From: Escherichia coli
GTDB taxonomy: Bacteria; Pseudomonadota; Gammaproteobacteria; Enterobacterales; Enterobacteriaceae
Assembly: GCF_003334315.1 (NCBI RefSeq)
Contig: NZ_QOWR01000097.1
Direction: 5' to 3' (one strand)
Length of the DNA: 5,142 nucleotides
Under the pieces are notes generated by a model. That model did no database searches, was not told the DNA's origin, and saw only the letters and a list, made by a program, of their open reading frames with translations. Positions 4,187-4,540 of the stretch are shown here, in pieces. Position 1 is the first letter of the stretch; each line of letters starts with the position of its first letter. The translations under genes were made by a program, and so were the position numbers.

Positions 4187-4468
4187 TTAAAGATGCTTCT
4201 TGATGGGGTGAGCAGCCGCAAGGTTAAGCAATACCTGGTGAGTAAGAAAATTTTTCCTCAGCTCACGTATTTCGATTTGTTCTGGTGTCATCGGAGAGGC
4301 TTTTGGTGTTTTGTCCCGAAGCTCATCACGCAGCAGTTTGACCCATCTTGCCATTGTGGAAAGGCCGACATCCATAGCTTTGGCGGCATCTGCCACCGTG
4401 TAGTTCTGGTCAACAACCAGTTGAGTGGATTCGCGTTTAAACTCTGCGCTGAACTTTCTTTTTTTCAT
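4187..4468 (-). pseudogene. insN: Truncated IS3-family transposase OrfA (IS911 OrfA/InsN-like) retaining the N-terminal helix-turn-helix; last ~21 codons derive from unrelated flanking sequence
   Basis: ATG at 4468-4466 (minus strand); translation [72 protein letters not shown] matches IS911 OrfA, then diverges into [21 protein letters not shown]. The leucine-zipper region, the frameshift site and orfB are all absent. Confidence 0.8.
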
Positions 4469-4540
4469 TGGAGCACCTGTGTTGTTCTGAGGTGAGCATA
4501 TCACCTCTGTTCAGGTGGCCAAATTCAGTGTGCCACCTCA
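4251..4540 (-). mobile_element. IS911-like (IS3 family) element, left-end remnant of about 290 bp (left inverted repeat plus 5' part of orfA); the rest of the element is absent
   Basis: Reverse complement of 4466-4540 reads TGAGGTGGCACACTGAATTTGGCCACCTGAACAGAGGTGATATGCTCACCTCAGAACAACACAGGTGCTCCAATG..., which matches my recollection of the IS911 left end (TGAAGTGGCACACTG...) and orfA start. Protein similarity to IS911 OrfA ends after ...IEIRELRK, near nucleotide 4251. Confidence 0.8.

Follow-up and report, generated by a model that had tools for sequence, protein, structure and literature searches.

The DNA between the doc gene and the integrase gene of our window (the whole 5,142-nucleotide stretch of Escherichia coli DNA that was analysed) holds what is very probably an inert remnant of an IS911 isoform, of the IS3 family, fused to a truncated copy of the phage P1 gene pdcA (pdcA'). 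The anatomy of the fusion, both of its parents, the breakpoint, its distribution across genomes and the mosaic of alleles carried by its copies are all seen directly in the sequences compared. The feature is of a known sort and represents no new kind of element; it is an ordinary dead IS remnant, and both halves of the fusion are annotated as pseudogenes (RefSeq/PGAP: a 'transposase' pseudogene at 4253–4468 on the minus strand, abutting a 'PdcA protein' pseudogene at 4151–4252 on the plus strand).

The IS911 stub

IS911, a member of the IS3 group of the IS3 family, was first described in Shigella dysenteriae. Working inwards from the tip of the element (TGAGGTGGCAC..., with the terminal T at window position 4540), we see that the minus strand of 4251–4540 aligns without gaps to nucleotides (nt) 1–290 of a full-length IS911 (pSAbAus-trunc, L003; 96.9% identity, E = 7e-134), and at 98.6% identity, again ungapped, to an isoform that is present at full length on a metagenome contig (L009). 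The stub comprises the first 288–290 nt of an IS911 isoform on the minus strand (start at 4251/4253, tip at 4540), or the first 23% of the 1250-bp element; identity and colinearity from the left tip together establish its descent from IS911. The left inverted repeat (IS nt 1–36, window 4505–4540, minus strand) matches that of IS911 at 35 of its 36 positions, the single difference being an A to G change at nt 4 (the 'TGAGG' variant); the same variant, with the same outside flank, is found in a copy at pheV (L011) and in a longer copy at pheU (L004). The boundary between outside flank and IS tip reads ATGTA/TGAGG and, with the right end missing, the left flank alone can be read for the 3–4 bp target-site duplication that an IS3-family element would carry.

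Between the inverted repeat and the start of orfA, the leader (4469–4504, minus strand) is identical to that of IS911, and the native orfA start codon is the ATG at 4468, as opposed to the GTG at 4504 given by the ORF finder. Codons 1–72 of the truncated gene (orfA'; 4253–4468, minus strand, annotated by RefSeq without its C-terminus) encode OrfA from the initiating methionine to the sequence IEIRELRK, with 90% amino acid identity to canonical IS911 OrfA and 100% to that of an isoform. The sole domain found in the chimeric protein, HTH_Tnp_1 of Pfam, covers residues 1–73 (profile positions 1–73 of 75; E = 1.1e-12); the helix-turn-helix is complete and retains W42, a residue whose role has been described (PMC3219604). 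The leucine zipper, by contrast with the four heptads (L70-I77-L84-L91) of the full-length protein, is cut after the first, leaving L70 and losing heptads 2–4. Similarity to IS911 then stops at 4251; at 4250 the window has an A where the element has a C, and alignments with full-length IS911 recover nothing past the junction. The –1 frameshift site (A AAA AAG, or A6G), found at about nt 320–330 of the full-length element and so beyond the last IS nucleotide of the stub (nt 290), is absent, as are orfB with its DDE domain and the right end. Lacking the zipper beyond its first heptad, the frameshift site, orfB and the right end, the stub is unable to transpose.

The seven differences from canonical OrfA, all of them non-synonymous, were considered as signs of decay or selection and rejected as such: a full-length, 100-amino acid OrfA (P0014, encoded on the same metagenome contig) has the same 72 residues, and, as judged from these protein sequences, the differences mark an isoform. 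A complete miniature IS or MITE-like derivative, as opposed to a truncated element, can be ruled out with near certainty; the intact left end is all that speaks for one, whereas the window contains neither a match to the IS911 right inverted repeat at three or fewer mismatches nor any inverted counterpart of the left one, and the DNA beside the stub is colinear with P1. An earlier note on this DNA had described an IS911-like left end truncated after about 290 bp, with its tip at 4540 and encoding an OrfA N-terminus with its helix-turn-helix that ends near 4251. The alignment to full-length IS911 bears this out in each particular, placing the breakpoint at 4251, and neither a complete small IS nor any OrfA similarity beyond that point came to light.

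The P1 partner and the junction

On the other side of the breakpoint, BLAST searches against phage records show that window positions 3502 to exactly 4252 (plus strand) are colinear, at ~91% identity, with P1/P7-type phages, corresponding to P1 88004–88753 and ending inside pdcA (88631–88831). In P1 this segment spans the –10/operator part of the promoter Pphd, phd, doc and the first 123 nt of the 'post-doc' gene pdcA; counted from the start chosen by RefSeq, pdcA' (4151–4252, plus strand) holds the 5' 102 nt (34 codons) of the gene, and RefSeq marks it as incomplete, its 3' part missing. Upstream of it, phd (3545–3766, plus strand; TIGR01552 phd_fam, 45.8 bits against a cut-off of 20.8) and doc (3766–4143, plus strand; TIGR01550 DOC_P1, 122.8 bits against 38.65) are adjacent, overlap by one base at stop and start, and fall into their curated families. 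By comparison with the phd-doc-pdcA-pdcB region of P1, pdcA is cut after nt 102–123 (according to the start used), pdcB is absent, and the –35 region and humD are absent upstream; the P1 prophage is also a plasmid, whereas the cassette in the window sits in a chromosomal island beside a fimbrial operon.

Two further features of this segment can be noted. The doc gene is one codon shorter than its P1 counterpart (125 versus 126 amino acids), with TAG at 4141–4143 in place of the GAG of P1. The left edge of P1 similarity, at 3502, falls between the –35 and –10 elements of P1 Pphd, such that the –10/operator region is kept and the –35 region is replaced by sequence common to IncFIB plasmids, with chromosome and plasmid sharing exactly this left junction.

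The last base to match P1 is 4252 and the last to match IS911 is 4251; in pairwise alignments the two parents therefore share a 2-nt overlap, the TT at 4251–4252 that is common to IS911 nt 289–290 and to pdcA. Transposases cut at the ends of insertion sequences and not inside the element. For this reason a break at IS nt 288–290, joined by 2 nt of microhomology, looks like the product of illegitimate recombination or deletion rather than of a transposase reaction, in keeping with the recombination scar that the earlier note had proposed.

Chimeric reading frames

The fusion creates two chimeric frames. On the minus strand, the 72 codons of orfA' run on for 21 more (4187–4250, counting the junction codon) to a stop at 4189–4187, giving a protein of 93 amino acids, convergent with doc and separated from the doc stop by 43 nt. 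An open frame of this kind, encoding an OrfA reduced to its helix-turn-helix, had been recognised beforehand, together with its 21 codons and its stop; the description of those codons as unrelated sequence did not hold, as a search for their source identified them as the antisense of the 5' part of P1 pdcA, so that the P1-like module extends as far as the junction itself. Where the zipper would go on, the tail offers H, A and K at its d positions and is not compatible with a heptad pattern. On the plus strand, a second frame (4151–4495) begins with the 34 codons of pdcA' and continues through the antisense of the IS stub to give 115 amino acids; it is almost certainly an artefact of the fusion, and the 93-amino acid frame is in all likelihood also a by-product of it.

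The 93-amino acid ORF is open in all copies seen (more than 100 genomes), and protein databases list its product with several variants, one source naming it an insN-type IS911A regulator (P0004). We regard this persistence as weak evidence for function, being what would be expected of a short frame and given that only called ORFs are recorded.

The native promoter of IS911, pIRL, lies at the left end of the element and is weak; it would be expected to fall within the inverted repeat/leader region of the stub (4469–4540), although our consensus scan, which found no promoter with at least 9 of 12 matches on the minus strand at the leader, did not call it. The promoter is drawn on the IS911 map described in the legend to Figure 1 of PMC2909936. 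Transcription from phd-doc would converge on the stub ORF, the only terminator-like hairpin on the plus strand lying beyond the stub at 4623–4651. This GC-rich hairpin, with a stem of 13 bp, lies in the interval that separates the IS tip (4540) from the integrase stop (4654), where it may halt phd-doc read-through ahead of the integrase gene, and/or terminate int. A scan with Rfam found no RNA family in the window.

Locus and host island

In E. coli ZF34 the 601 bp around the feature are 100% identical to the window, flanked by a fimbrial gene on one side and a P4-type integrase gene on the other; the latter abuts a tRNA-Phe gene next to dicD-dsbD-cutA, which identifies the site as pheU. Reading the window from its left edge, an IS1 end (1–204; 99.5% identical to IS1 copies in L008) is followed by a 5'-truncated fimbrial usher gene and then by a fimbrial adhesin-like gene that ends at 3360, ahead of the P1-like segment, the IS911 stub, the 3' flank of the integrase gene (4541–4653, identical in islands with a longer IS remnant) and the integrase gene itself (stop at 4654, minus strand). 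The IS1 end cuts the usher gene at 204/205; in strain PEC389 the usher is intact and the yehD-type operon complete. An imperfect 26-nt inverted repeat (3418–3443/3456–3481; 81% complementary, 12-nt spacer) lies between the adhesin-like gene and phd.

Distribution of the junction and mosaic alleles

A 76-bp junction probe (4225–4300) was searched against 5426 complete E. coli genomes, requiring full coverage. The probe matches over its whole length in 111 records, which belong to 108 of these genomes (~2%), with the arrangement of the window seen in about 49 of the junction-bearing genomes. At least three classes of outside flank can be distinguished: (a) the integrase flank, which is that of pheU in L001 and L008 and that of pheV, next to speC-yqgA, in L011; (b) a truncated autotransporter gene (L010, L012–L015), whose island has an integrase of 93% identity and, after it, sulfatase and OMP genes; and (c) an IS66-family tnpC on the IS1-rich plasmids pLKSZ04 and pL73-2 (L006, L007), where an IS1 end trims pdcA' to 26 nt and the junction is present without the module.

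The module is in turn found without the stub. Twenty-three IncFIB plasmids of ~106–218 kb, including pCT29-P1 (L005), carry a yehD-type fimbrial operon and phd-doc-pdcA' with no IS911 stub; identity within the shared block is 96% over 6.8 kb and >99% over the last 1.2 kb, and the plasmids diverge from the window at 4226/4227 with 76 nt of pdcA' kept. We found no plasmid with both the junction and the full module, the IncFIB plasmids having the module only and the IS1-rich plasmids the junction only. Upstream of the yehD-like gene, the block shared with the IncFIB plasmids starts within a copy of IS2. The IS3-family element at the far end of the fimbrial operon, which from its terminal sequences we take to be IS2, was considered as a partner end and rejected, having no BLAST similarity to IS911. 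The breakpoints on the two kinds of plasmid nearly coincide, with the IS1 end meeting pdcA' at 4224/4225 (L006/L007) and the IncFIB plasmids diverging at 4226/4227 (L005), a coincidence that a single IS1 insertion with the usual 9-bp duplication does not account for.

Inside the stub, the alleles are mosaic among the copies. The window has G, G and A at IS nt 4, 87 and 115, together with a patch of variants at nt 190–227; the pheV copy has G, T and G with the patch; the longer pheU copy has G, T and A without it; and the plasmid junction copies have A, T and G, again without the patch, along with T at nt 55 and at nt 174. Two independent events with an identical internal breakpoint in both parents would be improbable, which argues for a single origin; on the sequence comparisons, the junction probably formed once and was later moved or reshuffled among islands and plasmids. 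The allele combinations are compatible with either order, islands first or plasmids first.

A longer IS911 at the same site

A second probe, composed of the integrase flank, the stub and the IS911 continuation, was searched in E. coli genomes and is covered end to end in 13 of them. In these pheU islands the IS runs on to about nt 790, and is accompanied by other cargo with no P1-like module. Strain 2016C-3878 (L004) serves as an example: here too the island occupies pheU, and the 160 bp that border the IS tip on its outer side match the window without a difference. The TGAGG variant is shared, and the element, frameshifted and with many substitutions, extends to about nt 790 before giving way to unrelated cargo. 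The presence of a longer remnant at the identical site indicates that the insertion of the IS beside the integrase gene predates the truncation seen in the window. The remnant in 2016C-3878 (5159–5950) has a 1-nt insertion and, over its first 290 nt, ~15 substitutions, most of them G to A or C to T; this load is far above that of any other copy compared.

Proposed history and alternative explanations

The order of events, along with the absence of expression and of function, we infer from the observations given above. In the history that we favour, a complete IS911 would once have sat 113 bp downstream of a P4-type integrase gene in a tRNA-Phe (pheU/pheV) island. In the lineage of the window everything beyond IS nt 288–290 (zipper heptads 2–4, the A6G site, the DDE-encoding orfB and the right end) would then have been lost, and the stub joined through the 2-nt microhomology to nt 102–123 of P1 pdcA; a single illegitimate-recombination or deletion event may have made the junction. 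The pdcA' fragment is the last piece of a P1-derived phd-doc-pdcA' cassette travelling with the yehD-type fimbrial operon. The junction is presumably older than, or at least independent of, the present island arrangement, and would have been redistributed among islands and plasmids, most simply by homologous exchange in the 290-bp stub or in shared flanking DNA; one-ended transposition is a possible alternative for the changed outside flank. The stub ORF, if transcribed from the weak left-end promoter against phd-doc read-through, would yield a helix-turn-helix peptide without its dimerisation zipper, from which no significant activity is expected.

The earlier note had raised the possibility that this scar was the event that joined the P1-like module to the island. 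Spelled out, the proposal is that the junction at 4251–4252 itself brought the P1-like/fimbrial module into the pheU island, through illegitimate recombination between a resident IS911 and incoming P1-like DNA, all other copies descending from it. Several observations are in its favour: the longer remnant at the exact site in related islands implies a resident IS that predates the truncation; our searches of E. coli genomes and of plasmids found no intact parent IS911 at the autotransporter flank or the IS66 flank, respectively, so that for a model of homologous exchange a parent is documented at the integrase flank only; and the longest pdcA' is that of the islands (102 nt, whereas the IS1-rich plasmids retain 26 nt and the IncFIB plasmids 76 nt). 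Against this, the same junction stands behind the autotransporter and IS66 tnpC flanks, which a stub with neither right end nor transposase could not have reached alone; the plasmid copies are without the window-type patch at IS nt 190–227; and further recombination events, which could have run either way, are needed in any case. The proposal is weakened by the 111 records with three outside flanks and several allele combinations within the stub, and by the 13 other pheU islands that have the same IS insertion, to ~nt 790, and no module. As the junction occurs with different outside flanks, it was probably not the event by which the module entered this island, and we consider the proposal unlikely.

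A second alternative grants the lone left end a role in cis, with transposase from another IS911 driving one-ended transposition or adjacent deletion, so mobilising the phd-doc/fimbrial module or reshaping its flank, or with the end attracting new IS911 insertions. The left repeat is intact at 35 of 36 positions, the stub-plus-module turns up next to several flanks, its IS end in every case exact or almost so, and there is a report of one-ended IS911 insertion (Polard et al. 1994, J Bacteriol 176:1192, as cited in PMC3031569). Yet we identified no target-site duplications or surrogate ends, the plasmid stubs come without the module, many hosts have no chromosomal source of transposase, and homologous recombination accounts for the same pattern; we rate such an activity as quite improbable.

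Weaker still is the case for action in trans, in which the 93-amino acid protein would be a functional factor that damps or redirects transposition by binding to intact IS911-family elements at their termini, or to other DNA. The complete helix-turn-helix (profile positions 1–73 of 75) with W42, the intact native leader and start codon, and a frame that stays open in more than 100 genomes would be consistent with it. Published work places the DNA-binding module of IS911 in the combination of helix-turn-helix, leucine zipper and M region, finds that OrfAB[1-149] forms a dimer on the IS911 end, and reports that shorter derivatives bind aberrantly (PMC1636345, PMC2909936); going by the titles of Haren 1998 and 2000, as cited in the same two papers, the zipper is essential for activity and OrfA regulates through it. 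Here, however, the zipper is reduced to L70, with H, A and K at the new d positions, phd-doc transcription converges on the ORF, and sister islands have a frameshifted copy at the corresponding site. There would often be nothing to regulate, as the stub is the sole IS911-like sequence in several carrier chromosomes (those of ZF34, ZF31, W444, PI24, 1008S13 and further hosts have no other stub-matching sequence). With dimerisation lost, one heptad of four remaining, and with several hosts having no other IS911, the earlier suggestion that the OrfA fragment might bind intact IS911 ends is hard to sustain, and we judge a regulatory role to be highly improbable. Taken as a whole, the notion that the stub is not wholly inert, whether as an expressed zipper-less competitor at IS911-family ends or as a lone left end mobilising the phd-doc/fimbrial module, seems to us very unlikely; were it true, competition or one-ended mobilisation would account for the presence of one junction behind three flanks.

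Comparison with known remnants and significance

An inert remnant of this kind has precedents. The insN gene of E. coli K-12 is the IS911A 'partial regulator' of the CP4-6 prophage, and resembles the stub in being a dead IS911 orfA fragment within a horizontally acquired island. An 83-amino acid variant from other E. coli (P0020) follows OrfA up to K72 and no further, a frameshift within the A-run being the apparent cause. Both insN and other truncated or frameshifted orfA remnants differ from the present case in breakpoint and partner, which here are IS nt 288–290 and the antisense of P1 pdcA.

By itself the stub matters little. For annotation it carries a caution, in that the 93-amino acid 'IS911 regulator' and the 115-amino acid PdcA-like frame are best treated as artefacts of the fusion. 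The exact pdcA'/IS911 junction, on the other hand, is a marker for the fimbrial operon-phd-doc module, which has changed place between islands at pheU, at pheV and with a related integrase, and it could serve to trace the history of that module.
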